A stretch of DNA of 64,000 nucleotides from a virus (IMGVR_UViG_3300007517_000005:21512-85511); one strand, 5' to 3'. Positions 6,829-53,044 are shown, counted from the first letter of the stretch. Program-made: numbers and translations. Notes: a model not told the origin generated them from the letters alone.

Positions 6829-9800
6829 TTATCCTACCACGTTTACTTCCCAATCATCCCCTTCTGAGTAATCACTCTCACCACTTGGGTATGCACTGAA
6901 GTCCGTAGTGGGATTATCCATCACATACGATACCTCTATAGCCGCTCTCATAGGGTCTCCATCATCATCCATTACCGTACCCTCACCCACTTGCGCTAAT
7001 CTCTCCCCTATCATATCCTGCCTCTTTGATTCTGTTTCTGACATACTCCTCACGAAGCTCTCTACAATGCCTAGTGATGGTATTAAGTTAGTGCCATGCA
7101 CTGCTACCTCCCCCCCTATTACGGATGTGAGCATCCCTAGTACAGATGATAGTACTGCACCTCCTAATGTATTGGAGGCCGCCTTCCACCCCTTGTACCT
7201 ATCTACATCCATAGGTCTATCTACACGTAAGGGGCTAAACTTAGATAGTATCCTCTCCGCACCACCCATAATGGCAGGGGCTATTACCGCTGCACCCATA
7301 AAGAACCCTACCTCTCTACCAACCCATCTCCTTACCCACTCCCCCTCATCCTGTGAACCCTTAGACTCCGCATGTGCCATCCTCGCTCTAAATGATTGCC
7401 CTAGTACTGACGCCACACCTGGTCTACCCATTTGCGAGTACCCTAACATCGATACCGTCCCACCCACTACCTGCCCTATTGTATTCTCGTTGATAGAGCC
7501 GGTCGCCATTAGTGAACCTAAGAGTGTGAGCCCTGCACCCAATACCATGTCATTCATGTCGTGCATCCTACCTACGGCATCGTGCATCTCCTGACTATGC
7601 CTTGCATGACTAGCCGCCTGAGCTCCTGGATTCATGCCCGTTAGTACTGCCCTAGGGGGATTTGATGTTACTGCCTGTGCCCTCAAGGCAGCACTAATTA
7701 TAGGCGTAGACGCATCGCCCATCTCTCTACCCCGTATCTCTCTGGTCTCCGCCTGGTGCAGTGGATCTCTTGCCTCTACTATGGCCTCTTGTGACGCCTG
7801 CTGCGCTGTCATACCCTTGGATACCTTCTGCTCGGATAGTCTCCGGATGGTCGCTGATAATACTTCAGCTTCTGGTAATGATGCCCCTAACGCACTACTG
7901 ATTGTGCCAGCCCATGATTGATCTGAGTGCATGGTCTGACTATTGAACGCATCCCCTATATTATCTAGTAATCGTCTCCTCTGTCCTGTTGATGTAGCCT
8001 CTAATGCTACATCCAAGAACCCCATGGGGGAGCTATGCTCACCTATCACCTCCCCCGCGCTATTCCTTACATTGAACTTCCTATAACTCTCCCCCTCCCC
8101 TAATGGGTCATCATGGTACCCTACACGTATACCCCCATCCTTCTTATTGATGACCCTTACGCCTACACCACTCACACTATTCAACTCAAGGAAGCTCCTA
8201 CCACCTTGAGTCTGACCTAGTACCTGCTCCATACCTGTACTATCGCCCATGAAGTCCTTCATCACGGTCATGTAATGTGAGGCAGCCTCTGGGTCTATGC
8301 CATTCATACTACTATTCATTAGGGCTATCGTTATATCTGTATCCGCTAACTCCGTTGATATGCCTGACATTGTCTGAGACCTACCGCCCCCTAACTTCCC
8401 TGCCTTCTTCCTCAATGTCTCTAATGTGACGAACTGATTCAATCCCTCCCCTACACTACCGAAGATAGGGTCTGTCTGTTTCCTCCCTTCATCTACTAAC
8501 GCCAGCATTAAGGCCTTGTTCTTGCTCGAAGCTTCATCCCACCACTCATTCGCATCCTTTGATAGGGCCGCCCCTATGTCAGCCTTCAATGAGGGGTCGG
8601 ATATGAACTTCCTATCCATAGCCTCATCCCGATCCACATCCTCCCCAACCCCTAAGAAGCCACGTATGCCACTCCATATTGTATCTAGGAATGGTTGATT
8701 GTCTTTTGACCCTAGTTCGTAGCGGAAGGCAGTAATCGTAGCTCTCATGTCCCTCGCTACTTTGTACCTGACTACATCCCCAATAGTCCCATCTGATACA
8801 TCCACACCCCTATCGCGCATCTCACTACTCAAGCGCGTCATCTCCTCATTAGATGAGATCTTGTACTCCTTACTCAAAAATGCTATAGAACTATCATCTA
8901 TGCCTGTCAGGGGCTTACCATATACATTATTACTTGATGTCTCTATCAGGGTACTTAACTGCATGTATGACCGTAATCCAGGGCCAGGGCCTAACTTACC
9001 CGCCATCTCACTCAAGACTGCCCTCGCACTCGCATCATCCCCCTGGTCAATGTACTTCTGGTACTCCCCATGTGTCTTCTGTAAATCACCTAATACATCC
9101 GTGTCCCCCTTGAATTTGATACTATCCCTTAGTAGCTGCTGTGCACTCTTCATGAATGCCTGCAATGACTCCGCTCTCTTCGCCTCTATATGTACCTGAT
9201 TGAATGTCCCCTCTACATCATCTGCCATAGTGGTACCAGCATAGTACTCCTTCATACTATCCATCACGGTACTGCCACCCTCACCGCCTAGTACATGCGA
9301 TAGAGCTATTAAGGGACTATCGCGGAATAAGGTACCCACTAGGGCATTGTATGACTTACCTAATATGTCACCGCCCGCTACCCCTAATGTCTTCGTTAAC
9401 ATGTCATATACTGTGGGGCTCATTGATGCACCACTACCCATACCCATATACTTACTGTAATTGGATACTGCTACCTCTGATGATGATAGTTGGGCCGCAC
9501 CCTCCATTAGGCTACTACTTACATCCTGCTCAGGCTTAGCTAAGATAGACTCCATCATCTTAGTTATTACGTCTGCTCTCAATGATGGGTTGTTTGTTAA
9601 TAGCTCCCTGAAGTGATTATCAGACACATCCTTCAACATCACTGACGTATCTATATTGGAGGTAGATAATGCCTCACTTATTGATGCACCCTGCTTGAGT
9701 GATGATAATGCACTTCTGAAGTCCTCTGTTGCATGTATAGACTCCATCGTCGCATGTAACGCCATGATGTTATTATCGTGCGCTACCCCTTGTACCCCAC

Positions 9801-12800
9801 CGAATAATCCCCTCGATTGCTGTAAGTACGTAGGCAGTACCTCCATTGATATGGGCTTCTCCTGGTACTCACTCATGAATGCTTGCGATACCCCTAAGTA
9901 AGATGACACCTCCTTCCTCAGTAAAGGGTCATATGTCTGCGCTAATGTATCCCTCACCGAGGACATCTCCGCATCTATAGCTTTGATCCTCATGCCTATC
10001 TCCTCATTAGCTATGCGGTACTCATCACTCGCTAACCAATACTCATCTAAGTACTCACCCCCATTACTACTCGCCTGCTTCCTCAGCATCCCCTGCCTTA
10101 ATGTATTACTCTTCACCCTATCCGTTAGCCTCTGCCTATCATTCATGGCAGTCCCTATCTTGGAGAAGATTACCGTGAAGTTATCACCATCATAATCTAG
10201 TAACCCCAGTGCATGACCTGACATCACGGGCATTAACCCCAGGCTCTTATTGCGTCTCTCATCTAACTGTGACATCCCCTGACTCTCTAAATACACATTC
10301 AAGTTCTTCACTAACCCCACGGCTGTAAATTGCTGTCTCTGTAACTCCGTAGAACCGAATGGGGCTGACCTGAAGACTGTTGCCTGCAATACATCAGATG
10401 TATTTAGAGATACCTGTAATGACTCCATACGCGCTAAGGGGGCCTCAATAGATGTCCACTCACCCCTACCCTTATGTAATGTATCTAAGGCGCTACTTAA
10501 CTCCCTTAACTCTGTGCGGCTTGTCTCTATTAACTCCTTCTGGGAAGTGTCGTAACCATATGCACTATCTACTCTCTCAAGTGATACCAATAGTTCATCT
10601 ATAGATACCTTAGATCTATCCACAGAGTCCGCTAATAACTCCCTACTCTCACCCATCCCTAATCCCTGGAATAGACTCCTATCTATCCTATACGTCTCTA
10701 TACGCCCTCGTACACTACCCTGCCACTGCCCCATACTATCTGCATTGATAGCCCTCCCTAACTGTTCTATGAGGTTCTTATTAGGGACTACCTTCTCACC
10801 CGCTGCCATTGCCTGCTCACGGTTAGCGTACTCCTCACCACCTACCATGAATGATGACATCGTCTCCGTACGTGAGAACAACCCCTCCCACTCCTTCGTG
10901 GCGTTCTCTCTTCTTCTAGGGTCTGCTGCTATCTGCTGTCTCTCTACTATCTCTCTTAACCTCCCTGTCGGGAGTGCTAACGACCTTGTTACCTTATCCC
11001 TCTGCTTACCCGTCCACGATGACTCTACTGTCTCGTACTTCCTATAATAATTACCATCCCCTGACTCTGATACACGTAATTGACTATCGCCCCCTACACT
11101 GTATCTCTTGAACCAAGTACCGCCCTCTTCGTTATAACTACTGCTAGTGTTGAATGCTGTATCGAACTGCCTGCGTTGGTACTCAAGCTGCGATGTAACA
11201 TTACCCTCCGCCTCCCTTAACCTAGTCAGTGTTCCCTTCTTTAATGTTATATCCCCGTACGTGCCAGTAAAGGCCACACTCTGCTCTAGAACGCGCGATA
11301 ACCTCCCTAATGGTGGTAACTCATTAGCTGTTGTCTCTATTAATAAGGATGGTGTAATAGACGTATATGGGTCTATACGGTATGGCTTATCTTTACTAGA
11401 TACGTACTGGTCATCTAACGCTAACCTAGCACGCCTCTCACTACCCTCGTATACCTTCTTACTCCTTAACCATGACTCTAATGCTGGGGGGTTTACTGTC
11501 CTCTCGTAACTGTTCTCCCATACACCACTCGCACTACGCAAGACCTGCTCCCCTAGCTCTACTGCAAAGTAATTACCCTCATTACCCTCTCGTGCACCTA
11601 CTATATCTCTATAACTCCTCACACCTGGTAAGTTCGGGATATCTTCTGTACCCACACGGGAACGGGTATAATCCTTTATCTCCTGCGTTATACGGTCTGC
11701 TTGTACCTGGCTCACACCTATACCAGACCTTGTCTCCATTAGGGTAGATACATGGTTAGCATCTTGTATAGTCCATAACCGGGCCGCTATATATTCCTTC
11801 TGTAGTAAAGGGTTCCTTGTTATGTACTCTACATCCCCTTGCACTGTACGCAATAACATTGAGCCCTTCTCCCCCATACCACCCATTAAGGCATCCCTCT
11901 CCGCTTTCAACAATCGCATGCTATCCCTTGATGCAGGATCGGATAAGGAGCGTGTTACCTCCTCTAATCTCTGACGGCGTAGAGAATCACGTACATCCCC
12001 TGCACCACGCATACCTTCCTCGGGGGCTAAAAACATCCCCTGTGGTAATCCGAATGTGGCGGCGAATGTACCCACAAACCCACGTAATCTCGCCTCCATC
12101 TTCAAGCGTGTACCCGTTGATGCCTCCGCTATCCTCTCCACAATCCCATACGCGGTCACATAATAGTTCTGTAGTGCTTTCACCTCATCTGCTGTGAACT
12201 CTACAGACCCCGCCCCTGTTGCCTTTACCTTCGATAAGGTAGAGAATATATTACCTATTGCAGTTCCTGGACTGAATGCAGATGCTAGTGTTAGTGTACT
12301 CCTCACTAATTCATCTGTATACGATCCATACTGGATACCATATGTTCTTAAGTCCTCTGCACTGGGTAGGTAGAAACTAGTACCTGGTGATACATCGTCG
12401 AACCTCGCAATGATGCGCCCTGACTCCGATGGCATACTATCGAATACCACCGCTGGTAAATGATATATACCTCTCTCATGCGACATCTCTCTGGCTATAG
12501 CTTCTGCCTCCCCCACACCAAATGCCTTAGTCGCTAGTAACTCATATCTCCTACCCACATCCTGTATGGCTGATAGGGATGTACTATACTCACCCCTCCA
12601 CATAGAACCTAACAATGATTGCGTGTGTATACTACTGGGATTACTAGCCTCGAATAATAATGTACTCAACTCACTCCCTAATGTGCGTACATCCCCCACA
12701 CCACTTGCTAGGGCAGTCACTCTCTCTTCAATAGCTATCTGTACCGCCCCACCATAATCTTTATATGACTTCTTCAGGGCCGTTATATCCTCCATCCCTG

Positions 12801-22188: not shown

Positions 22189-23437
22189 ATGAAAAGAGCA
22201 CTCGTTGAGAGACATACTGTACTCCTCGCTACAGTCGGCAGTATCGCATATGGTCTGACATTATCTACCTCCGATAAGGATATCAAAGGCATCTGCATCG
22301 CACCCGCTGAATATTACTACGGTCTCAAACAGTTCGAGCAGAAGGATAAAGGCTGGGATGATACAACAGATCTCTCAAGTGGTCTATTCCCAGTCCTTGA
22401 TGGTATTAAAGACTGCACTATATATGAGCTCAAGAAGTTCCTCCGCCTGGCCATGAATAATAACCCCATAGTACTGGAGATGTTATGGCTCAACGATTAT
22501 GAGTACTTATCTACAATAGGGCGTGCACTTGTTCGTAGTAGACATCTATTCCTATCCAAGAAGGTCAAGCATACCTTCCCAAGGGTCGTAGCCTACGGCA
22601 CCTACATAGGCTACGCATACGCACAACTGAAGAAAGTATCTACACATAAGTCATGGTTACTCAACCCCCCTACTGCTAAGCCTCAAGCTAATGACTATGG
22701 CTTAGATGATGCACACCTCCCTGTCGGGAGTGCTAACGACCTCCCTGTCGGGAGTGCTAGCAACGCTGTGAGCGTAGCGACTAACGACCTCCCCTTAACT
22801 AAGAGTCAGATGGGCTCATTCCTAGAGTACATACTAGTGCTCACTAAAGATAGTATTGAATTCATGGAACCCGTGGCTGAACTCAAGAAGCTACTACTCG
22901 AAGATATAGACCTTACCGCTATCGTTAAACAGAGACCACTAACTACTGATGTTATACCCTATGTGCAGGCATTGACACGTGGTAGTACAAACTTCATGCA
23001 ATTACTACAAGCTAGTCAGGCTTATAGGAAGGCTATCTCTGAGTGGGATAACTACCAACAATGGAAGACTAATAGGAACCCAAAGAGGGCCGCACTTGAA
23101 GCACATTGTGGGTTTGACTCTAAACATGCTGTGCATAGTGCCGCATGGCTGCGACTGCCAAGGAGTGTACGTCTATTACGTCAAGGTCTTGAGGTGTTAC
23201 TACATGGTACCCTCACTGTTGATAGGCGTGGTTGATAGGCGTGACGCGGGTGATGCACCGCAGTTACTCGCTATACGTAATGGTGAGTATACCTATGAGC
23301 AAGTCATTGAGATAACTGATGCCCTATTCCTAGAAGTAGATGAGGCTTATAAACTATCCACTCTACCTCATGGGGTGCATCAGGAACATATAGATATACT
23401 GTGCACACAGTGGGTGCGAGATAGTCTGAGTAATTAA
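22189..23437 (+). pseudogene. Predicted nucleotidyltransferase (YcgL/RlaP/NrdC.11-like), frameshifted near the 3' end
   Basis: GSIAYGL..SDKDIKG, NNPIVLEML, GYAYAQ, RNPKRAALE..GFDSKHA..RLL; the C-terminal DAGDA..LLAIRNG is in another frame owing to a 13-bp tandem duplication (23218-23243); three in-frame element insertions. Confidence 0.85.
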
Positions 23438-28784: not shown

Positions 28785-29055
28785 GTCAGGAACTCAAGGC
28801 GAAAGCCACTGAGCTTGTAAGACGCAAGTTGAAGCAAGCTATTCTGACCAGCCTAAGTCGTTACGCTCTTAGCGTTGCTAAGTCTTAACTGACTACGTTA
28901 TTTGAGTCACGACACCCTGGGATCTTGCTAGTCCTCTGCCCTGTCGCTAGTGGTTAAACAGTTCTAAAGTCACTGGAACAGTGCTACTAGCCTAGCTACG
29001 CTCCCAGCGTAGCGACCTAACAAACTCTTATAACATTGGCGAAGCAAACATTACC
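28785..29055 (+). ncRNA. IscB omegaRNA (HEARO-type) scaffold with two family A insertions
   Basis: TGACCAGCCTAAG, GACTACGTT, GACACCCTGGGAT, TTAAACAG..CAGTG and AACATTGGCGAAGCAAACATTACC hallmarks. Confidence 0.8.
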
Positions 29056-34615: not shown

Positions 34616-34861
34616 CAACCCCTTACTTATCTCTCAAGGAGACTACGGGGGTACCGATACGTAGTGAACTACCAGCAACAATAGTAGATATCAAGGTATG
34701 TAAGCTAGGGGGTAGTATCCATATATACTATGGGGATAATGAGTGGAACTATAACATAGAGTTCCCAATAACAGTGCAGCGGATACTGGAAGCCATCCAC
34801 ACTAACTATAAAGGGGCTAGAGACGTACCCTCTATATTCTAAAGGTATAACAGGGAGAGAT

Positions 34862-35656
34862 ATGTCTGATTACTCTGGGGATGCCACATTAGAGGATTGG
34901 TTGAGTAAGGAAGTATTCAATAGCCCGGTACCTAAAGAAGTAGTAGATAAGTTCAAGGGGTACCGCACGGGTATAGAGAATGATGTAGGGGCCTGGATAA
35001 GTCAATCATATGATGAATGGCACATAGGTTGGAGGAGTTGGGGTAGGGGGTACAATACAGTGGACGAGGAGTTTGAGGTAATAGTACAATCATGTATCGC
35101 ACAAGTAACTAAGTACAAACTATCACAGGTAGACATGGCTAGATATACAGGCAAGGCTACATTAGAGGATTGGTTATCTATAGAGGTATTTAAATGCCCC
35201 ATCCCTAAAGAAGTAGTAGATAGATTCGAGGTGTACCGCACACGTGTAGAGGATGATGTACAAGCTTGGATAGATCAGAGTACAACCCACCGTCAAGGAT
35301 GGAACTTATGGGGCAGGGGGCGCGATGACTTAGATCACTCGTTCTATGAGTTAGTAGAAGTATGCACCCCTTATGTTGAGGCGTATATAGAGTTCCATGG
35401 ATTACCTAGACATGATTGTACTATGAGCCTGTACATAGTATTAGGTACACCAGGAGTAGTATCAGAAGCAATGCTTGTAATGGCAGATACATTGGAGCAG
35501 GCATTAGATTATAGTTGCCACATGACAGGCAATGATAGGGCTAGTGCTAAGGGGTACTTAATGTGCGATGTCAATGGTGAGGCGCAGCACCTATACGGTA
35601 ATGTATCTAAGGCTTTGCAAGAGTATGTACAGATCCATAATGCAGGATTATTATGA
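34862..35656 (+). CDS. Hypothetical protein with internal domain duplication
   Basis: ATLEDWLSxEVFxxPxPKEVVDxF occurs twice; GGGAG RBS. Confidence 0.65.
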   Translation: MSDYSGDATLEDWLSKEVFNSPVPKEVVDKFKGYRTGIENDVGAWISQSYDEWHIGWRSWGRGYNTVDEEFEVIVQSCIAQVTKYKLSQVDMARYTGKATLEDWLSIEVFKCPIPKEVVDRFEVYRTRVEDDVQAWIDQSTTHRQGWNLWGRGRDDLDHSFYELVEVCTPYVEAYIEFHGLPRHDCTMSLYIVLGTPGVVSEAMLVMADTLEQALDYSCHMTGNDRASAKGYLMCDVNGEAQHLYGNVSKALQEYVQIHNAGLL

Positions 35657-38326: not shown

Positions 38327-38331
38327 TTATA

Positions 38332-38363
38332 TAAAGCCGGCCTTTAATGTGGGGCCGGCTTTA
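38332..38363 (+). terminator. Hairpin after the tRNA
   Basis: TAAAGCCGGCC...GGCCGGCTTTA. Confidence 0.55.
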
Positions 38364-38457
38364 TAGTGCCGTGACTACGCCCCTTCAAGATAGTAATGGA
38401 GAACTCTGATGCAATTATCTGATGAAGAAGAGCAGTTAATATAAAGGTAATACAGCC

Positions 38458-39013
38458 ATGAGTAATAGATGGAAGACACCTATACATTTAGCAACGCTGT
38501 GAGTGTAGCGATTTAGAGTACTGGAATAACTTTATCCCATACGAGGATAAGGTAGCTGTACTCAATAGTAATACCAAGCAGGATCTAATAAGAGCTATGG
38601 TAGATTACCAGTACAATACATTCTGCAGGGCCATGGAGAGGCAGATACCAGTGAGTCAACCCAGCGGTAAGGTAATACCCTACATAGGTTCATTCTGGAG
38701 GGATATAGAGTGGAGTAGTAGTCGTCAGACTGTGCGTGACGGTAGTAGCACTAATATACACATAGGAAGAATAGTAGAAGATGGTAATGAGCCTCCTGAA
38801 CAAGGGTCGCCCTTCATAGGCTTCATGGCCAATAATAAGTGGGGGTACCCTGAACGTACACTCACTGCTGAGGAGAGGGCACATGTCATCTCCCTATTAT
38901 ATACAGCCATGCTCTCTGATAATAAGGTTGTCAAGGCAGGTACACTACAACACTTATGGGAGTACATGCAGACGTTGAGTGTAGAGTATGAGAAAGGGTA
39001 CGGGCCCCAGTGA
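38458..39013 (+). pseudogene. Gene frameshifted by a 25-bp family A element
   Basis: Removing 38491-38515 (ATTTA duplicated) joins MSNRWKTPIHL in frame to EYWNNF... and ORF 38597-39013. Confidence 0.7.
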
Positions 39014-39025
39014 GACGGCTAGGTT

Positions 39026-39238
39026 CTACTTCTTCTTCATACCCATGAGGACGAAGTAGAACCTAGCCTGCTGCCCCCTCAATCCTTTATCCCCCCTATG
39101 TTTCTGTGCGTACTCTGCAACAGACATACCCGCTCCTTTAGCAGCCTTTGTGAGGGCACCGGGCCTCTTTACAGAATCCTTTATCGATAACTTCTTCTTC
39201 TTAACCATGATCACATCCCCTATCACAAATGAGTACAT
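39026..39238 (-). CDS. Small basic protein
   Basis: IKDSVKRPGALTKAAK..GQQARF pattern seen in phage small proteins. Confidence 0.55.
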   Translation of the reverse strand: MYSFVIGDVIMVKKKKLSIKDSVKRPGALTKAAKGAGMSVAEYAQKHRGDKGLRGQQARFYFVLMGMKKK

Positions 39239-39671
39239 ACAGACTTACATGAGTGCCAACCCCTTATATGTACTAGAGACAGATTGCTGTCATGTAAGCA
39301 CAGGCATTGGGGGCTGGCCCTCCGTTACCGCAACCAAAGAGAGGATATGTATACTACCACCTGAGCATACCTGGTTACTAGATATACAGGAAATGGGAAT
39401 GTGCTGGGACTTCAAGGTACATATATTCCATTACGTTAATACAGCCGCAGGTGAGTCTATAACGGACTTACAGGTTCGTGATAACCCCCATAGGTTCTAC
39501 ATCAATCACCACCATACCAGTCCCAATACACTCTATACAGTACTACCTATATTATTGTTTAATAGAGTAGAAGTGTTAAGTGCACACAACCCTGCTGATA
39601 TAATAATAATGAGCCGCACAAGTACATATAAACTACCACCCCTATTAGATATGAGTGACTCCCCATGGTAA
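39150..39671 (+). CDS. Hypothetical protein, paralog of the next gene; true start probably downstream
   Basis: ICILPPEHTWLLD..IFHYV versus IAVLPPAYRWLLD..IYHYV. Confidence 0.6.
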   Translation: MRAPGLFTESFIDNFFFLTMITSPITNEYIQTYMSANPLYVLETDCCHVSTGIGGWPSVTATKERICILPPEHTWLLDIQEMGMCWDFKVHIFHYVNTAAGESITDLQVRDNPHRFYINHHHTSPNTLYTVLPILLFNRVEVLSAHNPADIIIMSRTSTYKLPPLLDMSDSPW

Positions 39672-40012
39672 GTATAAGTAACACAATGAATAATACAGCG
39701 GCCCTACAGACCCCATCTGACCTATACGTAATAGATATCCAATATAAGTATGTGGGAGACGATAAGGTATACAGCGGTAAGATAGCAGTACTACCACCTG
39801 CATATAGATGGTTACTAGATGCCGATACACGGGTACACCCCATACCAGAACAATGGTCTACCTTTGATAAGACCATATACCATTACGTGGATGTGGCATT
39901 GGGTGAGAACCTCATGCAATTAATACACATGAATAACGCACATGGATTCTACATCGTGGGTAATGCACGGGCCCATATCTTAACAACATACATAAAGGAG
40001 ATGAGTATATGA
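39665..40012 (+). CDS. Hypothetical protein, paralog of the previous gene
   Basis: Shared LPPxxxWLLD and HYV motifs. Confidence 0.6.
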   Translation: MVSISNTMNNTAALQTPSDLYVIDIQYKYVGDDKVYSGKIAVLPPAYRWLLDADTRVHPIPEQWSTFDKTIYHYVDVALGENLMQLIHMNNAHGFYIVGNARAHILTTYIKEMSI

Positions 40013-40251
40013 GTACAGGTGCACGGCACGTCCCTGATGCAGGTAATGACATAGAGTATGCAGTACATAATGTACTAGGTAGGGTGCGGCATAAGGCACT
40101 TGAGCTAGTGCTACACAAACATGATAATAATCCAGAGATAACTATAGACGAGGTAGAACGAGAAGCTGAGGAGATAGTAGAGTTATGGGTAAGGGATAAT
40201 ATGGTGGTGAGGGTGAATCCCATCAACAATACACCTAAAGAGGTTACATGA
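40009..40251 (+). CDS. Hypothetical protein
   Basis: ATGA overlap, GGAG RBS. Confidence 0.55.
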   Translation: MSTGARHVPDAGNDIEYAVHNVLGRVRHKALELVLHKHDNNPEITIDEVEREAEEIVELWVRDNMVVRVNPINNTPKEVT

Positions 40252-40523
40252 GTGATTCAGAACATCTAAGAGATATATTCGCACGTATACGGGGTAAGGC
40301 GTATTATACCGCTTTACTTAAGACGATGAACAGATACACCGGGCCGTTAACTCCTGAGTTAGGAGATATCATAGTAGAGGAAGCGACAGCCTTAATTGAT
40401 AAGTGGGAGCGTAAGGGAGTGTTCAAGGATAACATTACGGTCAGTGTAAGTAAAGAGTCGGGCCCCAAACACATAGATATAAGCATAGGGATATCAAATA
40501 TAACAATACCGACTGACCGTTAA
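40248..40523 (+). CDS. Hypothetical protein
   Basis: ATGA overlap, GAGG RBS. Confidence 0.55.
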   Translation: MSDSEHLRDIFARIRGKAYYTALLKTMNRYTGPLTPELGDIIVEEATALIDKWERKGVFKDNITVSVSKESGPKHIDISIGISNITIPTDR

Positions 40524-40678
40524 ACGTAAGGTCAGTGGATAATATACAGGTACTCCCTGAGCTTAGCTAAATCGTGGTATATGCCACCTACCTCTGAGGG
40601 ATATATATACATGTAGGTACCCCCCCCCCCCCTGCTGTATGTAGGCCACGCTGGTATATCATCCCACTGAGGTAGTAT

Positions 40679-41059
40679 ATGAATCTAGACAGAGTAATCA
40701 GTACGTTGAAGAGGTTCATTGGTGATGCCAATGAGTCTACCTACACACAGGTAGGCAGCATATGGTTATCGCACCACGATCGTTGTCACTTAGAAGTGGC
40801 CGCCCTCCCTGCCTTACCCATGGGCGGAGTGATGGTCACTGGTATTGCAGGTGTCTGCGTACCAGAGTTTGGTAATCAAGAGTGTACTCCCAAGTACAGT
40901 GGTCTGTACGATGAGTGCAGAGTGGCTATTCATCAGGCATTGGTGTATCCATCCCCATGTGGATACCTTCGACTATTTAAATGGTACCTCTGGATGATGT
41001 CCAGAGGTATCAATCCTATCAGTACTGTAATGGTACACAAAGGAATGTTATGTTCATAA
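40679..41059 (+). CDS. Hypothetical protein
   Basis: GAGG RBS. Confidence 0.5.
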   Translation: MNLDRVISTLKRFIGDANESTYTQVGSIWLSHHDRCHLEVAALPALPMGGVMVTGIAGVCVPEFGNQECTPKYSGLYDECRVAIHQALVYPSPCGYLRLFKWYLWMMSRGINPISTVMVHKGMLCS

Positions 41060-41246
41060 TCAAGAGTGTAGGCTTAGTTATAGGAGTATGTGTTGGTTTG
41101 TACCTCACATACTCCTTGAAAGTATATCTGGGTATCAATCTAGATATAGCAGGGGATGAGCACTTCCCTTCAGTCATTGAGAGGAAGTCTCACGGAGTGA
41201 TTAAATGTAGATGGTTCCCCAACCATCACCATTGTAAGTAGTAATA

Positions 41247-41279
41247 TAGTAGGCCCTACCCATGGGCCTATTATTGTAC
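41247..41279 (+). promoter_or_regulatory. Conserved intergenic hairpin motif, copy 1
   Basis: TAGTAGGCCC-TACCCAT-GGGCCTATTATTGTAC. Confidence 0.75.
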
Positions 41280-41296
41280 TCTATCAATTTAGTCCC

Positions 41297-41911
41297 ATGT
41301 TAGTATTAGCTCTGTCTGTTGTCTCCGTGGTATGTGTGGTATCTATTGTATCAGTCGTGTATTTGTACCAACAAGTACAGTCGATGAAAGCTCAATTGGT
41401 GGCAGCACACACCAATACCTCGTTCGATTGTCTCACTCGCACTGGTGTGCGGGTCACGTGGAAGGGCGGTCGGCAGGGATTGATCTTTATGGATCTAGAT
41501 CACATGCACGGCTTGAATAGCCTCCTAGGTTATGCACAAGTAGATGCACTGATCCACCGCGCCCTTGCTACCTTGCGTAGCACCGATGCAGTATCATCGA
41601 TCGGGCAATGGATGAGTGGTGATGAGTTCATCATCACCTGCTTTGCAGGTGAGGAAGTGGGTCTCGCCACGCGGCTGCGTGGTGTCATGAGTGATATCAC
41701 TCAAGAGTTACGGATGGATTCATCCATCCAAGCTAAGCATGCAGAGTTACTGGCTACGGATGCTCGGTATGGCATGTCAGCACCTACGTTTGCAGCCACC
41801 TATGGCTGTGTCACCACAGTGACAGGTGCATCACTAGAAACAGAGGTGAACCGCGCCTCTTTTAAGGTACAGGCTGCAAAGGCCGCCAATGATCGTGGAA
41901 CTGTAAACTAG
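41297..41911 (+). CDS. Membrane-anchored GGDEF-domain protein (diguanylate cyclase-like)
   Basis: N-terminal TM helix; DCLT, FMDLDHMHGLNSLLG..D, SGDEF. Confidence 0.8.
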   Translation: MLVLALSVVSVVCVVSIVSVVYLYQQVQSMKAQLVAAHTNTSFDCLTRTGVRVTWKGGRQGLIFMDLDHMHGLNSLLGYAQVDALIHRALATLRSTDAVSSIGQWMSGDEFIITCFAGEEVGLATRLRGVMSDITQELRMDSSIQAKHAELLATDARYGMSAPTFAATYGCVTTVTGASLETEVNRASFKVQAAKAANDRGTVN

Positions 41912-41930
41912 GCTCTGTATATTTATCTAG

Positions 41931-41963
41931 TAGTAGGCCCTACCCATGGGCCTATTATTGTAC
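41931..41963 (+). promoter_or_regulatory. Conserved intergenic hairpin motif, copy 2
   Basis: Identical to copy 1. Confidence 0.75.
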
Positions 41964-41983
41964 ATACTCAAAGGATAAAGATC

Positions 41984-42535
41984 ATGACTAACTCTAACTT
42001 CGATTACGTAAACAACTACACTCCCGAAGTGGGTGTAGCAATGGACTACTACGCAGCGTCACTGGGTGAGATGTTTGCAGCAGAAGAAGCATTAAATGTC
42101 GCCAAAGAAGCAGAAGAAACAGCATTAGCAGAAGCTGATGCAGCCTCACTACTCAATCACACACAAGAAGAATATCAGTACTACCACCGTACAGTGGTAG
42201 CATTGTGTGCAGCAGAAGATGCAACCTCTGCCGCCCGTACAAACTACGATGCTGCGTGTGCAGCATGTCTAATTCAATTAGACAATCTCTTAGCCGCAGA
42301 GGCAGCAGTATTGTACAACTTATACTGGGACGCCCAGTTAACGGTGTACGCTGCTGAAGAAGCAGAAGAAGCTGCATTAGCAGAAGCTGATGCAGCGTCC
42401 TTACTAGATCACACGCGCGAAGAGTATCAGTATTATCAACAGACAGTAGTAAAACTACGCACTGCGGAGGAGGCTGTGATAGCAGCCTGTGAATTACTGG
42501 TAGTAGCTGCGGTGGCTGCAAGCATCACAAAATAA
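41984..42535 (+). CDS. Acidic Ala/Glu-rich helical protein with internal duplication
   Basis: ALAEADAASLLxHTxEEYQYY twice; very few K/R; AAGGA RBS. Confidence 0.65.
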   Translation: MTNSNFDYVNNYTPEVGVAMDYYAASLGEMFAAEEALNVAKEAEETALAEADAASLLNHTQEEYQYYHRTVVALCAAEDATSAARTNYDAACAACLIQLDNLLAAEAAVLYNLYWDAQLTVYAAEEAEEAALAEADAASLLDHTREEYQYYQQTVVKLRTAEEAVIAACELLVVAAVAASITK

Positions 42536-42597
42536 CCCTTCTTTTAGTAGGGGGATCCCCAATCCCCTTCTCTTGACCCCCTTACCCCCTAACATAT

Positions 42598-43251
42598 ATG
42601 TCTATTAACTACTACCACCAAGTCTGCGGCACAGAAACAACCACGACTCGCCTCGCGCGTGGTGGGTGCGGTACATTGACAATGGCCGGCCACTGGGCCG
42701 GCTACAATTGGATATCAAAAGTAGATCAGAGTGGATGTGCAATGCCACTCGTCCAACGTGAGTGGGAGATACTCAAAGAGTTACAAAACACTGGCTTAGT
42801 GCCAGTAGTGAGCCCTGTCTCACCGCACATAAACGGTAGTATCATGCACATCCAGTGCATCGATAATGCTGCCAGTCTGCTTGACTATACACAAGCATAT
42901 CTAAATGGGTTAATACCTATTGGGGTATTGCGGGACATATTAACATTAGTGGTAACTGCTGTTACCACGTTCCACTCACTCGGGTGGGTGCACAACGACC
43001 TACACAATGGGAACATTGTCGTAGGACATAACCAGTACACATGGGAAGTGTACATAATCGATGTGGCCATGGCCACACGCGCAGAAGAAGAGGTACCAGA
43101 AGCCTTAGCAGAGGCATTTAGTATACCTCACTTACCCAGTGAGGACTGGTACTTCCTCAAGTGGTCAATAATGGCCGAGGCGGAGGAGTACGAGGACGCG
43201 GATAAGGGGCGGGAGTTGCAAGACTTAGTTGATGAATTGATACCTGAGTAA
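42598..43251 (+). CDS. Protein kinase-like (Ser/Thr, RIO/Kdo/APH fold)
   Basis: LARGGCG, K..REWEIL, HNDLHNGN, IIDVAMA. Confidence 0.8.
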   Translation: MSINYYHQVCGTETTTTRLARGGCGTLTMAGHWAGYNWISKVDQSGCAMPLVQREWEILKELQNTGLVPVVSPVSPHINGSIMHIQCIDNAASLLDYTQAYLNGLIPIGVLRDILTLVVTAVTTFHSLGWVHNDLHNGNIVVGHNQYTWEVYIIDVAMATRAEEEVPEALAEAFSIPHLPSEDWYFLKWSIMAEAEEYEDADKGRELQDLVDELIPE

Positions 43252-43255
43252 TTAG

Positions 43256-43288
43256 TAGTAGGCCCTACCCACGGGCCTATTATTGTAC
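43256..43288 (+). promoter_or_regulatory. Conserved intergenic hairpin motif, copy 3
   Basis: One loop substitution relative to copy 1; precedes the polymerase gene. Confidence 0.75.
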
Positions 43289-43309
43289 TTACAACAATCA
43301 ATGAATATC

Positions 43310-46300
43310 ATGGCTACTTCAAACAACGGTTCCATTGTTTCTACCACCACCTCTACTACTCCTTCTGCTACTCCTTCTGCTACTACTATGAACACTACAT
43401 CTACCTCTTCCATCTACAAAGCTGCTGCTGCAGCCCGCAAAGCAGCAAAGGCAGCAGCAAAGGCTGCACCAGGTATTGCCATTCGTGCAGCGAAAGCAGC
43501 TAAGGCTGCAGCCATTGAAGCTGAACGTGAGGCAACTAAGGTTGCCGCTATTGAAGCTGCGCGTGCGGCTGCAGCTATTGCCACTGCTACACGGTTTGAA
43601 GTCTACTGCTACTTGACTGTAGCCTCTATTAAGGGCAATGCTGCCACTGCGGCAGTTATGGGTTCTACCACATTGGTAGTAGCCGCTGCCTTTGCAGTAG
43701 CAGTCTTAAAGGTACGCCGCCCACGCAAGGCCACTCGTGCCGCTCGTAAAGCAGCCGCACGGAAGGTAATGGGTATTGCATCTCGCAAGGCTAACCGCCC
43801 TTCTAACCGCCCCTCTCGCGCTACAGTAAGCACTTCTAGTGCGTTTGTACGTAAAGTGCACCGCAACAGCATGGCTGTTAAGCGTGCAGCACGCATGGGT
43901 GCATTAGCTGTGTATCAGTATGTAGCTATTGCTACTGCTGTCGCGGCACCTGTTCTGGCTAACACTTCTACCTCTGAAGTAGAAGCTATACTAGAACGCC
44001 CTAAGCGCACTGCGAAGGTAATGCCTTTAGCTTTGGTACGACCCAACGTACGAGCAGTACGCCACTATATTGCAGTTGCAGTTGCAGTTGCAGTTGCAGT
44101 AGAGGTAGAGGTAGAGCCTACTACTGCATTCTCACGCACTGAAAAGGCCGAGGCTGACAAAGCTAAGGCTTCATTGAAGGGCAGCCGCACAAAGGCGCAG
44201 GACGATGCTATCGAAGCTAAAGCTAAACGTAAAGCTGAAGCTAAGGCTAAGAAGGCTGCTAAGTCTACTTCCACCCCCAAGACTAAGACTGATAAGAAAG
44301 ATAAAGGTAAGGGCATCACCTCTGAACGCAAAGGAGCCCACAACCTAGTTGTGGCGGGCCCTACCGCTGACAACTACGGTTGGGTAGAGATATCCAATGA
44401 GGAGTTACTCCTCTCCCTTGAGTCTTCAGACTCTCATACTGCAGTAGGTCAAGCTGCAGAAACTATTCACAAGGACAATAACGACATGACTACTAACTTC
44501 TCCCCTGAAGTAATCACAAAGAACTTAGAATGCTTACTGGCTGGGGTTATTACTCCCGCAGAAGCATTCCTATTGGCACAGCACCAAACTGTAGCCGCCA
44601 CAACTGTGGTAGATGGTTCTGTGGTGTGCATGAAAGCACCCGCAACTCCTGCTACATTAGCGCCTGTGACTAATGTAGAATTGGCCTACACAAGCGAAGG
44701 CCGGTTCTACCCTGCCAAGGCTTTAACCAAAGAGTACTTTGCAATCCCGGCAGACTTCTACGCTATGGAGTCCATCCGTATTGCGTACAAATCAATGAAG
44801 TTGGATACTCACACGTATAACTTCTACGATGAAGGTGGCACTGTCTCTATTAAGACTAACAAACACAACAACAGTATCTTCATCAACAATTCCCACCCTC
44901 GCATCTACTTAGTAGATGGTGTAGAGTACCACTTCAACAACTTGTTGGAGGCAGTGTTCAATGAATCTATATCTGCCACTAATGCAGGTGTGCTAGAACA
45001 GTGGGCTGACTTCAATATTGAAGTTACAGGAGTAGCTGAAGATTTGGGGTGTGACTTAGAAGAAGCTACTACTCTAGTAGTAGCAGCAGGATTTGTTAAA
45101 CCAGCCCAACCTATCCACTACATAGTCCCTATCGCAGAGCGTGTAGAGACTAAAGAGAAGGGTAAGTTTGAGTATAAACTGAATGAGAAAGCTATCATCG
45201 AGAGTGCAGCCTTATGGGAAGAACAAGGCTATGAAGTACTCGTTATTAAAAGCGAGTTAGTGGTTAGCAACCTCTCTGTAGAGAACTTCCGCTACAACGG
45301 GTGCATTCCTTGCGAACCCATTACTAACCGAGAGCTAGAGCGGTTAGTATTGAGTGAGGTTGTACAGAAATGGAGTGCTGATAATATCCACTTATCAGTG
45401 AAACCCATATCCAACCTGTCTGAATGGTTGGATAAGGTAATGAACTCCAATACCGGCTCTGTAAAGAGCATTAGTTTCTCCTTCAATAACATCACCAATA
45501 TACAGCAACGTATATCTGATGTGAAGGGATTCTCACACGAGTTCACCTTCGCTACTCCCAAAGATCACTACGATGCTTTAGGTTTGGAGGAGGGTTCTGT
45601 ACCTGCGTTTACAATTAACTTGTGGACTAGCGCCCCTGCTAAATCTGCAGTAGTAAGCCAGAAGGTTATGGCAGATGTCTTAACCAATGTACCAAAGTTA
45701 GAACGCCGCACTGGTACACAAGGTTCATCTTTGTCTGTGCGCGGCTTATTTGCACAGAATGCAGGTCGTAATAATGTGAAGCCTGATGCTCCAAGACAAT
45801 CATTAGCTCATAAAGTGCTCGCTACTAATGTTGTAGCTTCAACCACTAGTGCATCAGTCACTAATGAAGTGATTACACCTACTGTTGCTGAGGCTAAAGA
45901 GGCTACCGCTTCGGCTGTTGTCATAGACACAGTATCTGGTGGGGCCGCTTTTGAGGTAGATTCAGTTGGTGGTGCATTAGATACAGCCCCAGTTATTAAT
46001 GCTGGTGATGTATTAAAACCCGCAGCGTCTAGCAAACAATCAGCTACTCCTGTAGTAGCTACAACCTTGAAAGACGTAGATAGTCAATTACTAGCCTTGA
46101 CTGGCTCATCATCTGATGATGAAGAAGAAGAGATTGATTTAGATGATATGGATCTCTGCCAAGCAGTAGAGTTGAAGGAAGTAAAGTTTACTCCTAGCTA
46201 TGATGGCGACATCAAAACTATCATAAACGACTTAGATTTGGCTATAACAACCATACCCGCAGGTGGTGACTACGGGAACTACCTCAACGATGTGATATCC

Positions 46301-49300
46301 ATCTCTGAAGAGTTGTCAGGGGATGAAGCTACCCAAGTGTTAGTCCACGAACTAATGCACGTAGTAATCTCCAACGTCAGCGAAGATGCGGCTAATAGCT
46401 TCATCACTGACTGGTTAGACACGGTGGGTCAATCTAGTATCTGCCCCGCAGACATGAGTATGGAGGAACAGTTCTGCTACTCCTTCATGGAGTACGAGCA
46501 TAATGTAGATGACCTATCCGCATTCCTAGATGGAGTATTCAATCGTGATGATAGCTGGGTTGATGCTTACAACGCATTAGCTGTAGCAGCCGGGCCAGAA
46601 GTAGCCGCTAAGTCTACTGCCCACCTCAGCATCATCGCTGAGGGCACTGCACCTGTAGTACCAGCATTGAGCCCCATGAAGGCCGCCTTATTGGCGGTGA
46701 ATGATCAAGAGATCATCATCGTAACAAATAACAAGGGGACAGTGCCAGTAGCATACACTGATGCGTTCCCTGAACTGTTAGATGTTATGCCAAGAACGTT
46801 GGAGTACGGTAGCACAACTACTGTGACTGCCGCCTGTGGTGTTACCTTGCATGCTATCTGCGCGGTGAGTGAGACAGGCACTTTGCATACTGACTCACTG
46901 AAGAGTGGCTTGATGCACATCGCAACTCTTGGTTGCGATAAGAAGTACGTCTGTGAACCAGACCTGGGCTTTGGCGATGATATCATCATCAAGCCCTACA
47001 TATTGGGTGCTGTCACTACCTTGTTAGGACAAGCTAAGGTACGCACTTTACAATTACCTGTAATGGGGCGCCTCGTTAAAGCATGGGCTAATGCCGGTGC
47101 TGTGGTAACGTACCCTAAAGCAGACCTAAGCCTATGGGCCGCTGATTTATGTCGAGGTACAGCACTAACTGCTACTGCAGTAGGTACTGGTGAAGTGCTG
47201 ATGGCACAACGCACTCCAAGTGGTCGCTCTATGGTTGCCACTATGGCGATCATTAAAGAGGACGGTACAGTTGATAAGGCTGCCTTAGCAGTCGGCTTAA
47301 CTGAATTAGAAGAAGGTATCGCTAATGGTCTAGTGCCACTGCCAATCACGGTATACAGCAATCAACAGGTTGCCTTTAATACCATCAAGTACCAACACTC
47401 TAATGCCATACGGGGGGTAGAGGTTGTAGACTATGAGCAGAATGTCTTCCCCGAAGCAGTAAAGATTGGTGTCTTAACGAAGGGCCCCAAAGGTGAAGTA
47501 GGCGCTGACCTATATAAGTGGTATAGCTTCTTACGAGATGGTATCAGCGGGGGCGCTGGCCTGTACAATGTACAGGAGTTGAGCGTAGAGCTCTTCACAG
47601 AAGCATTCAAGGCAGTAGGGTTGCCTGTAAACCTAGCTGGGTTCGCATTATGCCCAATGCCACTACGCTTCTTAAAGAACGGCATGGTGTTCGTACGTAA
47701 TGGTAAGACCGCCAAAGGTGTAGTAGAGAATGCTACTAAGTTCGAGGACATGATCGATAAGACATTACTCGGTGTGTTATTAGATAGTGGTGTAAAAGTG
47801 TACACAGCGCAATATGCGTGGGATGCTGCTGCTAAGAAGTCCATGATTCGTGGTGTTGTAGAGAACATCTACGATTACGAGCAAGGGTATGGTCTGGAGC
47901 CATTACCAGAAGGTATAGCTGGCCAAGACATGCTGAAGCTGAAAGAAGATAATGAATTCATGTACCCTATCATCGCATTGGGTACAATAGGTCACAGCCT
48001 AGACCAGTACATGCAGAAGCATGTCCACGATACACTACAGTACCTGGTAGACAACTTCGGCGTAGGTGTCGCAATCCGCTATACACAAGCATTACTCCCT
48101 GAGTTAATGCAGAAGGAAGGCGTGATGACGACCGATGGTACATTACAGTATCGTCTATCCGTGTTCAGCTTGCAGAATGCAGCAGAGTACTACATGGAGT
48201 TCACTCCTGTAGAAGGTCTGAATGATACGGATCCTAACTGGCTATCCCCACGCGACTGTACAATCATCTCGCGTCGCCAGTATGACGTGAATGCCATCAC
48301 TAACCTGTCTGGCTTCCCTGACACTATGTACGATGGGACTGTGGTAGCACTGGCTTTGGCTATCTCTGCAGCTTGTGGGCGTAAGGTAACACAGGATGCC
48401 TTTGAGGGTTACCTTGCTGGTACCACTAACCTCTGGGCCCGTAGTGAGAACTACGGTAAAAAAGGTATCACCGAGAAGTTCGCCAACTACTCACTGACAT
48501 CTACACTGAAAGTCATCATTGACAACAGTGGTAAGACTATTTCAAGTACACCGAACCACGTTATTGACGCAAGTGGTGTCCGCTTAAGCAAGGAGACAGG
48601 TGCAGGTCGCTGGCCATACCACATGCCTTGTAATGCCCCCCTAGACCTCTCTGTAATGCAGTGTCTAATGAAGAAGGGGCAACTTGTTATATGCGATAAG
48701 TACGCTATGGAGCGTATTGTAGTAGGTGATGGCGCACGTGCCATGATGGCCTCTATACTGACTGTAGAGCAAGCTTCTGAGCTAGCCGGCTATAACCAGA
48801 ACTATGGTCTGAGCATGGCCCTAGACCCCAACAATGGTAACTGTGTAATGTCAGTATGCTGGCCTACGGATAAGGCTAGTAAAGCATTGAACCGGCCGTG
48901 GCAGTTCAATGGAGCCAGCCAAGCAGATGGCTGGCATGAGAAGTTAAGCTGGTGCCCATTGCACACAGACTTAGGGAACAACAAGCGCTCCGCTATCGAA
49001 GGTTTCAAGCGCACCTTTATCGCTACTAACGACTTTATGTCGCACGGCAGCGGTACTGCACAACAACATCCTGACGCCTCTTTGTGGAGTCTATTTGTAC
49101 CAGGCTCCATGTCGGCTACATTGACCTGGAACCAAGTTCCAGCAGTACAAGAGAAAGTGGATGCCAATGGTAATCACTTAAAGGGTCTGCGTTGCAATAC
49201 TGCAATCATGGGGCCCGTATCAGGTGAAGGCCCCGCTGGTAAGGATGCAGATGGCAAGGAGGTACCAGTGTCTAAGTGGTTCTGCGATACCTTTGCGAAG

Positions 49301-52300
49301 ATGTTCGTAGAGAATGCCATTAAGAAGGCTATGTTTGAAGCCGATGGCACTACTCCACGGGTATACGCTCCAGGTGAGGAGATGGTAGTAATACTCGATA
49401 AGTTAATGGTCAAGGGTAATGAAGTAGTTGGATACTACCCTAATGGTCAGACTCCTGGCTTACCTTCATCCCGAACTGTATTGTTTACCAATGATTTAGG
49501 TAAACAGGACTGCGTTATCACAGGGTACCGTTTACTCCCACAGCAACGTGGTGAGAAGTTACAGATACGACTAGACTATGCGACAGTCATGGATACCAAT
49601 AACATTGACACTTCAATGTACTCTGGTATGAAGGGGCGTGGCCTAGGTATCAAGTTCATCATCAACCACGATGGCACTATTGAGTACATCGGTAAGGTTC
49701 TTTATAATGGGGAGATGGTTGACGCCAATGAGTTGTACAAACGTGGGGCTATCCACGTAACTCCAGAAGGTCTGAAAGGTAACTACGCCTTCATACAAGG
49801 GTTCGCCTCTGCACACGGTAATGCAGTAATGAGCGGCCCTTACCTGACCATTGACAGTACCATGCCAGATGGTACTCCTAACCCTCACTACCTCCTAGGT
49901 AGTGCAGACATGGTATCGGATATGTCCGATTCTAATGCTTACTTCTACAAGTGGATGAAGAGCATCACGCAAACTAACCGCATGCGGAAGACAGTGAACC
50001 GTGATGTATGGGAAGAGATTGTAGCCTACAACCGGGAAGCATTAGGCCCCGATGGTAAGTTACCAGGCTTAGTCATCATCCCACAACCTGGCCCCTACGC
50101 TATTGAGTGGGATGGGGAAGTAGATGGGCAACCTCACGTCACTACACCCAATGTAGTGACGGTAGAGTACGACGTGCAGATCGCAGTATTTGATTACTGG
50201 GTGCAAGTGGAAGTCGCTACACCGGGTGCATGTACAGGTGACCAAGGCGCTACCTCTGAGCAAGCAGTGCACATTGAGGTCATGCGTGAAGCTACTGCCA
50301 CCCACTTATGGAAAAGTAGTGCGAAACAACGCAAGGGTGTAAATAGTGCAGTAAGATCTGCAGAAGTCCACGCTAACGTGGAAGCAGGTATTCAGGAAGA
50401 TGGCCTGTTCCAGTTCAATCCACTAGACAAAACACATCAAGAGTTGATGATGCACTTGTTGAATCAAGTGTCTAGTACAGGTGTACGTACAGAACGTAAG
50501 CCTGAACACTTCTTCATACTGTTAGCTACATTGTTCGGTGGGGCCGCTATGAACCCAACCGCGCTATGGTTGAACATGTTAGCAGGTAAGGTATCAAACC
50601 TTGACTATGTTGAAGGTGCTAAGGGTATGGAAGTAGTTACCAACAGTGGTGGCTATAACTACCTGACTGAAGTTACTGGCTTATTGGAGCTAGTGATGAA
50701 TACACTGGGTGTCTTTCCCTTAGAAGAGCTAGGCTTAACGTTACGTGACTTGCAGGAACTTGTTAGCATAGCTATTCAAGATCACCTGACAATGGACGTA
50801 GCCGGTACACGCACAGTAGTGGAGAGCATCACTGGTGTTACCATGAGCACATCCGCTACAGCCCTAGGTATACAGATGTATATCATGGACCTTATTGGGT
50901 TAGGGTACACAGTAGTAAAACAGGTTGAAGGAAAGCCTGAACCGGATCTAGCCATCATCCCATTGCACGTGGGACAAGGTTTAGTGATCAATACAACTTC
51001 AGAGAACACTGAAGCTGGTGAAAGCCAGGAGGCGGTGACTTATGTTGACCCGACTGTGTTCTTACAGTTGGGTGCATTTGAGGTTAGCCGCATAGCCGCA
51101 GACCCTAAGACTCATGCCCCTGCACGTACTGTTACAGGTGCTGCTACAGGTGTGGTCAATGACATACACCACGCATTCGTGGAATGGACCACAACACAGT
51201 TCTGGCAACGTAATGGTAGCGGCACCCGCCCACACTCCATGAACTGCCGCTTGCGGGCATCCATGGCGGGTTGGATTGGGGTTAACAGTAAGAAATCAAC
51301 CCAGCTTAACGCTAAGGGTGTACTGTCACGCGTAGCACGTATTAACAAAGGTGGTGTAGCTGGTAAAATAGATACAGGCTTAGGCCCTGAATTAGGTCAC
51401 CACATCGTCACCGATAAGAATGGTACACCAGTAGGTAAGCTACCTGTAGCCATCATCCACCCTGACTGCTTACTAGCCAAAGGGCTGAAGCATGGTGACT
51501 TAATTGCAGTAGGCCGTACCCCCACGGTATCCCTAATAATGGCCGTAGTGCGCTTCTCCCGCGTATTCGGACGTATGGGATATATCCGCATGTCCTTCTC
51601 CGTATGGGCCGCTGGTAACAACGGAGATAGCGATGGAGACCCATGTAACCGCATCCGTATGGGTGGCGCCACCGATAAGGGTTGGTCTGGCTTAACCTAC
51701 CGAGGTGCGATGAAGATCAATAAGAGTGCCCTCGGTATGGGCGGCTATAGCATAGTGTGTGGTGTCCCCTTACATCAACATGACTGTGCAGAGTTCGTGT
51801 CCTTTACGAACTCCTGGACTAAGAAGGTATTCAATGATGCCTTGATACCTGACTCCATTAAAGCATGGCTAGCCGTTAAAGGCTTGAAGGTCAAGGGACT
51901 GGAGACATTGGTTAACTTGATGTTACCTGCTAGCTTACTGGATAGTGCACGTAAAGTGTCACAACACTACCGCGCTAACGTAGGCGTCGCCTATGGTTGG
52001 TGTAGTGCATACTCCGCACACATGAAGGAGAAACACTCATACCTGAAGGCAGTACTGAATGCTGTCTTGAAGAGTGAGGCTGCTTTAGCTTGTGGGCATG
52101 AACTGCCATCAATAGATACATTGATGGAAGTGTTAATGAGTGGTGAAATCTATGAAGCTATCCGACTTACCGCTGTAGATACAGTGGTGGATGGTACAGT
52201 AATGACCACTATAACTCAAGATGCAGAAGCAGTTGTGCGGATCCGCATCAAGTACCCTGCCATTATGGCACTGTATGACCTCAAGCTAATTGCTGAAGTC

Positions 52301-53044: not shown

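Follow-up and report, generated by a model that had tools for sequence, protein, structure and literature searches.

Does one phage encode two giant, highly divergent single-chain two-barrel RNA polymerases, one carried in the virion and the other made early in infection? The question arises from a viral DNA stretch of 64,000 nucleotides (IMGVR_UViG_3300007517_000005:21512-85511; hereafter the window), in which two giant open reading frames (ORFs), P0001 and P0002, were predicted to carry an R..P motif followed by DxDGD. Both motifs are present (DYDGD at 10183, DSDGD at 51626), and all full-length homologs found retain them. The window makes up half of a cyanophage with a contractile tail, Ma-LMM01-like and related to Fukuivirus. 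Ma-LMM01-type phages have been published as lacking an RNA polymerase and as wholly dependent on the host enzyme (PMC9927357, PMC5780444). A phage-encoded polymerase in these model viruses of toxic Microcystis blooms would change the reading of their three-class expression programme, and would bear on the striking lack of host transcription change during infection.

The 85.5-kb IMG/VR record that contains the window is judged to be ~51% complete. In the phage collection the two giant ORFs have their best matches in Microcoleus phage My-WqHQDG (65% identity for P0001, 43% for P0002) and, at 24-27% identity, in Ma-LMM01, MaMV-DC and related Microcystis phages. The two genes occur together in four of five related IMG/VR records, one a complete 252-kb genome, and Ma-LMM01 carries both, gp064 being of the P0002 type and gp080 of the P0001 type. 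Neither a sigma factor nor a T7-type RNA polymerase was found in these related IMG/VR records; the Ma-LMM01 clade encodes a family A DNA polymerase (gp178) and a primase (gp134). The window shares with Ma-LMM01 the gene order major head protein (gp086), gp085, portal-like gp083, gp081 and giant gp080, and the following genes belong to this cluster:

17-1303, minus strand: major head protein gene, homolog of Ma-LMM01 gp086 (phrog_30785, E = 2.6e-99)
4286-5716, minus strand: portal protein gene, homolog of Ma-LMM01 gp083 (phrog_113, E = 4e-16; tblastn, 5e-77)
6248-6679, minus strand: gene of 143 aa flanked by P0001 and the portal gene, Ma-LMM01 gp081 homolog
6829-18522, minus strand: P0001, giant ORF of 3897 aa, ortholog of Ma-LMM01 gp080 (phrog_31006, E = 3.9e-92)

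All these head genes lie on the minus strand with P0001 in first position, and P0001 therefore leads the head-gene operon, as expected from its predicted placement in a virion cluster.

The case that P0002 is a two-barrel polymerase is well supported, and the features on which it is built are these:

43283-53044, plus strand: P0002, ORF of 3253 aa, the C-terminal third orthologous to Ma-LMM01 gp064
46196-46366, plus strand: zincin-type metalloprotease motif region, HELMH at aa 1022 (phrog_87, E = 7.7e-4)
49130-52729, plus strand: predicted two-barrel polymerase core, aa 1950-3149 (AlphaFold2, Foldseek, 78 homologs)
49631-49654, plus strand: β-like basic loop K2117-G-R-G-L-G-I-K2124 (K-x-R-x-x-G-x-K)
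51515-51640, plus strand: β′-like barrel motif R2745-T-P-T ... N-N-G-D-S-D-G-D2786
51926-52069, plus strand: 48-residue helix, model residues 933-980, ~100 aa past the catalytic loop (DSSP)

The DSDGD motif (aa 2782-2786, nt 51626-51640, plus strand) follows G-R-T-P-T at aa 2744-2748, and R2745-T-P2747 precedes its first Asp by 37 aa, the corresponding distance in E. coli β′ being 35 aa. The flanks are also alike, with R-T-P-T/N-G-D-S-D-G-D in P0002 and R-A-P-T/N-A-D-F-D-G-D in E. coli β′. This likeness to bacterial β/β′ (R-[AT]-P-T, then 35-37 aa to N-x-(G)-D-x-D-G-D) extends to a basic K...K loop in the upstream barrel and a long helix after the catalytic barrel, whereas P0002 differs in being one chain. 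In shuffled sequences D.DGD arises by chance in 2.8% of cases for P0002 and 6.5% for P0001, and in 0.16% and 0.8%, respectively, with R.{1,2}P 30-60 aa upstream; a single occurrence is therefore weak evidence, and conservation carries the weight. With P0002 aa 2055-3253 as the query, exhaustive HMMER searching returned 78 representative clusters of this family, mostly 950-1700 aa long. Among 63 relatives K2117, R2119, K2124, R2745, P2747 and D2782/D2784/G2785/D2786 are conserved to 90% or more, and K2117, R2119 and K2124 are invariant in an alignment of 33. The basic loop and the R-T-P-T...N-G-D-S-D-G-D motif are ~665 aa apart in P0002, with a barrel-motif spacing of about 440-665 aa across the family.

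As modelled by AlphaFold2 from a 63-sequence alignment, the P0002 core (aa 1950-3149) is confident (pLDDT 80.2, pTM 0.79), and both motif regions lie in β-rich domains with pLDDT >90. The upstream domain holding K2117/R2119/K2124 is a candidate β-type barrel, in keeping with the β-like region foreseen in this ORF, and the 48-residue helix may, by inference only, be a bridge helix. Foldseek against the PDB gave uniformly weak E-values (0.07-0.4, none <0.001), and despite this the best matches were nearly all double-psi β-barrel domains: the p97/CDC48 N domain, the designed barrel 7di0 (target TM 0.76), the VCP-like ATPase barrel 7dg9 (0.67), dimethyl sulfoxide (DMSO) reductase barrels, expansin and kiwellin. 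Interspersed among these were RNA Pol I A190 and African swine fever virus (ASFV) RPB1, the RNA polymerase rows having E-values of 0.2-0.4 and low probability; the single-chain enzymes 6VR4, 2J7N, P23-45 and YonO were absent from the 50 PDB matches listed. In BFVD the MaMV-DC ortholog ranked first (8.7e-33), with a weak tail of LEF-9, RNA polymerase subunits of phages and giant viruses, crAss-like pieces and RlpA barrels. The model thus places P0002 in the double-psi β-barrel class, as a predicted two-barrel polymerase. The whole protein matched no polymerase family in Pfam or PHROG, PDB sequence and profile searches matched no polymerase, and eight relatives run against Pfam gave nothing relevant, with RNA polymerase domains missing even at E = 1; across Pfam, PDB, Foldseek and hhalign, no characterised RNA polymerase was matched significantly, in sequence or in structure. 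No clamp, flap or sigma-binding element was recognised in the single chain.

The N-terminal part of P0002 has a different distribution. HExxH occurs in only 5 of 55 long relatives, among them Ma-LMM01 gp064 (HELVH at aa 242, KLRGLGKK at aa 932, RTPM...NEGDADGD at aa 1311-1352), and this confinement to long members implies that the zincin-bearing extension is an add-on. A role of P0002 as tape measure was considered and rejected, as the extension is absent from most relatives and the Ma-LMM01 tail module has better candidates.

P0001 presents a similar motif in a very different protein, with the following features:

7099-7548, minus strand: hydrophobic membrane-type segments, aa 3659-3808 near the C terminus (Kyte-Doolittle scan)
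10183-10371, minus strand: β′-like catalytic-loop candidate F-R-S-A-P-F-G...K-S-L-G-L-M-P-V...D-Y-D-G-D, aa 2718-2780
17539-17874, minus strand: PLD-like (HKD) domain, aa 217-328, HQKVMVTD at aa 309 (PF13091)

PF13091 scores 30.7 bits on P0001 (cut-off 27) and is also annotated on most close homologs. The DYDGD motif spans aa 2776-2780 (nt 10183-10197, minus strand), F-R-S-A-P-F-G spans aa 2717-2723, and R2718/P2721 precede the first Asp by 58 aa. Among relatives drawn from a large collection (13 proteins) and from IMG/VR (9 loci), R2718, P2721, G2723 and D-x-D-G-D do not vary in the 14 to 23 that were aligned, down to 22% identity. Most relatives read N-L-G-D-F-D-G-D; the window's own loop, G-L-L-D-Y-D-G-D, is without the Asn of N-x-(G)-D present in most of them. 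Of shorter, free-standing versions of the P0001 core, a search found one fragment only. P0001 is a candidate for a virion or ejected protein whose acidic loop is of the polymerase type; on virion composition, the MaMV-DH01 paper holds that mass spectrometry remains necessary.

The fold of this region was approached through P0008, an ortholog 68% identical to P0001, of which aa 1606-2805 were modelled by AlphaFold2 from a 22-sequence alignment. The choice of P0008, in which most of the variable insertion is absent, allowed the loop and the conserved blocks downstream of it to fit within 1200 aa; the model accordingly leaves out the 370-aa insertion of the window's P0001 (aa 2250-2620) and the region 1480-1640. 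The result is poor (pLDDT 58.7, pTM 0.34) and nearly all helical, with pLDDT <50 at the loop (model residues 772-850) and at the S-K-E-P-x-G-x-K site. Around the loop this low-confidence model has helices, no strands and no barrel, and Foldseek returned generic helical proteins only, with no double-psi β-barrel and no RNA polymerase among them. Profile comparison by hhalign singles out the loop as the best local match of P0001 both to bacterial β′ and to the P0002 family, over 22-30 columns only: 22 against a 31-sequence bacterial β′ profile and 30, at a probability of 47%, between a loop fragment profile and the P0002-family barrel. Nothing beyond the catalytic loop aligns with P23-45 gp64/gp96, phi14:2 gp66 or E. 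coli β/β′, and the loop profile finds in an antibody CDR about as good a match as anywhere in the PDB. Neither Pfam and PHROGs on the whole of P0001 nor PDB sequence and profile searches matched a polymerase, and Pfam on seven loop fragments gave nothing relevant at E up to 10. Three stretches could be proposed by eye for a β half, namely R1536...K1545-G-V with N-P-S-N-L-K-S, S-K-E-P-I-G-T-K at 1814 and T-R-L-K at 2140; none is backed by hhalign. Likewise, β-type G-D-K...K-G-V and N-P...S-R motifs, a bridge helix and a trigger loop assigned by eye in P0001 were discarded when hhalign against E. coli and 31-sequence β/β′ profiles did not recover them. The expectation of two single-chain two-barrel enzymes, each with a β-like region ahead of its catalytic motif, is therefore borne out by conservation and predicted fold for P0002, and for P0001 in its conservation half only, its ortholog model being low-confidence and helical and no β-like barrel having emerged.

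As a polymerase P0001 is a candidate with about an even chance. The joint reading that we propose, in which P0002 is a two-barrel RNA polymerase and P0001 is probably packaged and holds a far more diverged second polymerase centre, has an even chance of being correct. It is also quite possible that P0002 is the only polymerase and that P0001 is a giant internal-head or ejection protein with a PLD nuclease front and a membrane-active end, its DxDGD loop being a Mg/Ca metal site for some other activity, or structural. The almost wholly helical P0008 core with no barrel at the loop argues for such a protein, together with the Foldseek search that found neither double-psi β-barrel nor RNA polymerase, the profile tests that found no β-like half, the 6.5% of P0001 shuffles with D.DGD, the presence of another D.DGD at aa 3852, and the equally good match of an antibody CDR. 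However, no other feature of the 3,900-aa protein is as conserved as the loop and its upstream R..P.G, the N-L-G-D-F-D-G-D of most relatives is close to the universal N-A-D-F-D-G-D, the 30 columns shared with the P0002-family barrel run counter to a polymerase-unrelated loop, and the poor P0008 model may reflect merely its 22-sequence alignment. For P0002 itself, we infer that it makes RNA. The two-barrel superfamily also includes QDE-1-type RNA-dependent RNA polymerases and archaeal PolD, and P0002 might thus be an RNA-dependent RNA polymerase or a primase-like or PolD-like DNA polymerase rather than a transcriptase; this is very improbable, given that the clade already has gp178 and gp134 for DNA synthesis and no other RNA polymerase or sigma factor, and that the nearest weak matches of P0002 are DNA-dependent RNA polymerases.

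The order in which the two proteins might act can be judged from the promoters downstream of P0002 and from the timing of their orthologs. Two elements follow the P0002 gene:

53100-53139, plus strand: copy of a conserved 40-nt hairpin element (family D9)
53187-53454, plus strand: tandem array of 3.3 copies of a 69-bp unit, sigma70-like promoter units

The counterpart in Ma-LMM01 is a 42-bp × 6.7 array between gp064 and the early gene gp063. In both arrays each unit is sigma70-promoter-like and the last unit ends in GGGATATAA; the last, partial unit of the window's array ends in GGGATATAAT. Sigma70-like promoters have been inferred for all three Ma-LMM01 expression classes (PMC5780444). The tandem arrays fit transcription of the early genes by the host enzyme, not by an injected polymerase. 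Timing data come from Ma-LMM01, the only relative with a transcriptome, and not from the window's phage: there gp064 and gp080 both belong to class B5 ('middle'), the genes gp054-gp063, next downstream of gp064, make up the early class, and log2 values at 1 h are 1.58 for gp064, 0 for gp080 and 7.9 for early gp063. P0002 had been assigned to an apparent early operon, which these data do not support, as the gp064 ortholog is a middle gene and the early cluster begins after the tandem array downstream of it; nor do they back the timing proposed for the cascade, both orthologs being middle genes.

A cascade in which P0001 enters the cell together with the DNA to transcribe an early operon including P0002, which then takes over as in P23-45, is consequently unlikely. 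The P23-45 precedent, the place of P0001 within the head operon and the co-occurrence of both genes across the clade are in its favour, but gp064 is nearly silent at 1 h (log2 1.58) when the adjacent early genes stand at 7-8, tandem sigma70-like promoters fitting the host enzyme front the early cluster, and the polymerase nature of P0001 is unproven. Under the joint reading, the C-terminal ~1200 aa of P0002 would form a single-chain two-barrel polymerase, most likely a DNA-dependent RNA polymerase, in which a β-like barrel would supply K2117/R2119/K2124 and a β′-like barrel ~665 aa downstream the Mg-binding D2782/D2784/D2786, and which in this lineage would be fused behind an extension of ~1950 aa with a zincin motif. 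P0001, with its N-terminal PLD-type nuclease domain and hydrophobic C terminus, would be made with the head genes and probably be packaged and ejected; its invariant R..P...DxDGD loop would probably constitute another polymerase centre, one that has diverged much further. Transcription of the early cluster would then fall to the host RNA polymerase, starting at the tandem sigma70-like promoters that closely follow P0002, the P0002-type enzyme, made in the middle period, would transcribe middle or late genes, and P0001, if it is a polymerase, would act from the incoming virion. A still more ambitious version, with both giants as polymerases, P0001 as a head-packaged PLD-nuclease-polymerase fusion ejected via the contractile tail, and the host enzyme completing a three-polymerase programme, is rather doubtful; if true, it would explain the near-untouched host transcription in Ma-LMM01 infection.

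The combination of two such enzymes had been put forward as one not recognised before, and here a precedent exists. Thermus phage P23-45 has a virion RNA polymerase, gp96, and a non-virion one, gp64, both of the single-chain two-barrel type (Chaban et al. 2024, PMC10770324), and a virion plus non-virion pairing is thus not new in kind. As in P23-45, the two proteins considered here are very different, and one of them, the candidate P0001, is a giant virion-module protein. P23-45 gp96, which a DFDGD loop brought to light, is fused to the tape measure protein; this giant protein of P23-45 also has a metallopeptidase motif, whereas here the zincin motif lies on the other enzyme, P0002. The P0002 barrel fragment aligns best with gp96 (97 columns, hhalign probability 43%), along G-L-K-x-G-D-[IL]-x4-R-x-P ... 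DxDGD. In contrast to these likenesses, the P23-45 proteins have no significant sequence similarity to the P0001 or P0002 families, P0001 is not a tape measure but has a PLD domain and precedes the portal gene, the host is cyanobacterial and the tail contractile, and the ortholog of the second enzyme, gp064, is a middle rather than a pre-early or early gene.

The general layout of P0001 is also that of crAss-like phi14:2 gp66 (PDB 6VR4), a giant virion protein of 2180 aa that is encoded in the structural module and has a mid-chain R-x-P ... DFDxD loop; gp66, from a podovirus of Bacteroidota, has no detectable similarity to either family here. A second polymerase is not known in phi14:2. P0002 in turn resembles the YonO (SPbeta prophage)/QDE-1 type, in which β-like and then β′-like barrels follow one another in one chain without a sigma factor, and its minimal relatives (about 950-1070 aa) are in the size class of these enzymes, which yielded no sequence match to P0002. 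New compared with the published record are a predicted polymerase in a group described as RNA polymerase-free, a zincin-fused enzyme, and a PLD-nuclease-fused candidate in a contractile-tailed phage. With its 78 representative clusters, some of them zincin-fused, the P0002 family would add a new deep branch to the single-chain two-barrel polymerases; Pfam has no model for it or for the P0001 family. Ma-LMM01 is in culture and has both genes (gp064 and gp080), which makes the question directly testable.

Further copies of the 40-nt hairpin element lie at 41244, 41928 and 43253, so that the copies bracket P0002 and the two small genes before it. As the element overlaps the TTG at the head of the ORF, the true start of P0002 is probably at 43301, 43310 or later.

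In P0008, a closely related ortholog (JGI) of the giant ORF P0001, the loop reads D-V-D-G-D (aa 2443-2447). Position 2 of the P0001-family loop can therefore be F, Y or V, whereas its Gly and all three Asp residues are fixed. P0001 itself has further features beyond this main loop:

6955-6969, second D.DGD (M-D-D-D-G-D-P), aa 3852-3856, near the C-terminus
10663-11775, variable stretch of ~370 aa, aa 2250-2620

The second D.DGD is partly conserved, appearing as D-G-D-G-D-P in relatives, and its setting is not polymerase-like. The variable stretch stands between the conserved N-side blocks and the catalytic-loop block; it is mostly missing or far shorter in many relatives, with 40-80% gaps in divergent members.

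A conserved 40-nt element occurs around P0002, the predicted single-chain two-barrel polymerase, in four copies:

41244-41283
41928-41967
43253-43292
53100-53139

It consists of a 12-bp stem (G-U pairs included) that encloses a 7-nt loop, with TTGTAC after the hairpin. The element precedes three consecutive genes, P0002 among them, and another copy lies immediately 3′ of the P0002 stop. Because a copy overlaps the TTG given as the P0002 start, the true start is probably located further downstream.

Directly 3′ of the P0002-type gene and ahead of the next gene cluster, which in Ma-LMM01 is the early cluster, the window phage and Ma-LMM01 both carry a tandem array:

Window 53187-53454, 69-bp units
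Ma-LMM01 43271-43551 (L001 7272-7552), 42-bp units

In both phages the array units each look like a -35/-10 pair; the last of them is partial and terminates in GGGATATAA(T/C).

Elsewhere in the window, the following ORF features were recorded:

22189-23235 (+), ORF of 348 aa for a nucleotidyltransferase that belongs to the RlaP / RNA-repair Pol-beta family (PF10127 at 3.3e-14; phrog_388)
34858-35277 and 42105-42474 (+), two small ORFs with internal direct repeats, 147 and 118 nt long, at 74-76% identity

Several families of GC-rich palindromic elements of 20-45 nt, some of them nested, (CTAGCAACGCT...AGCGTAGCGACCTA, CCTCCCTGTCGGGAG and CCCCAAGGGTCGTAGCC) are spread between genes at many window sites:

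22715-22784, 28979-29022, 56372-57304, 59378-59429 and 60198-60353, example sites
10954-11001, copy within P0001
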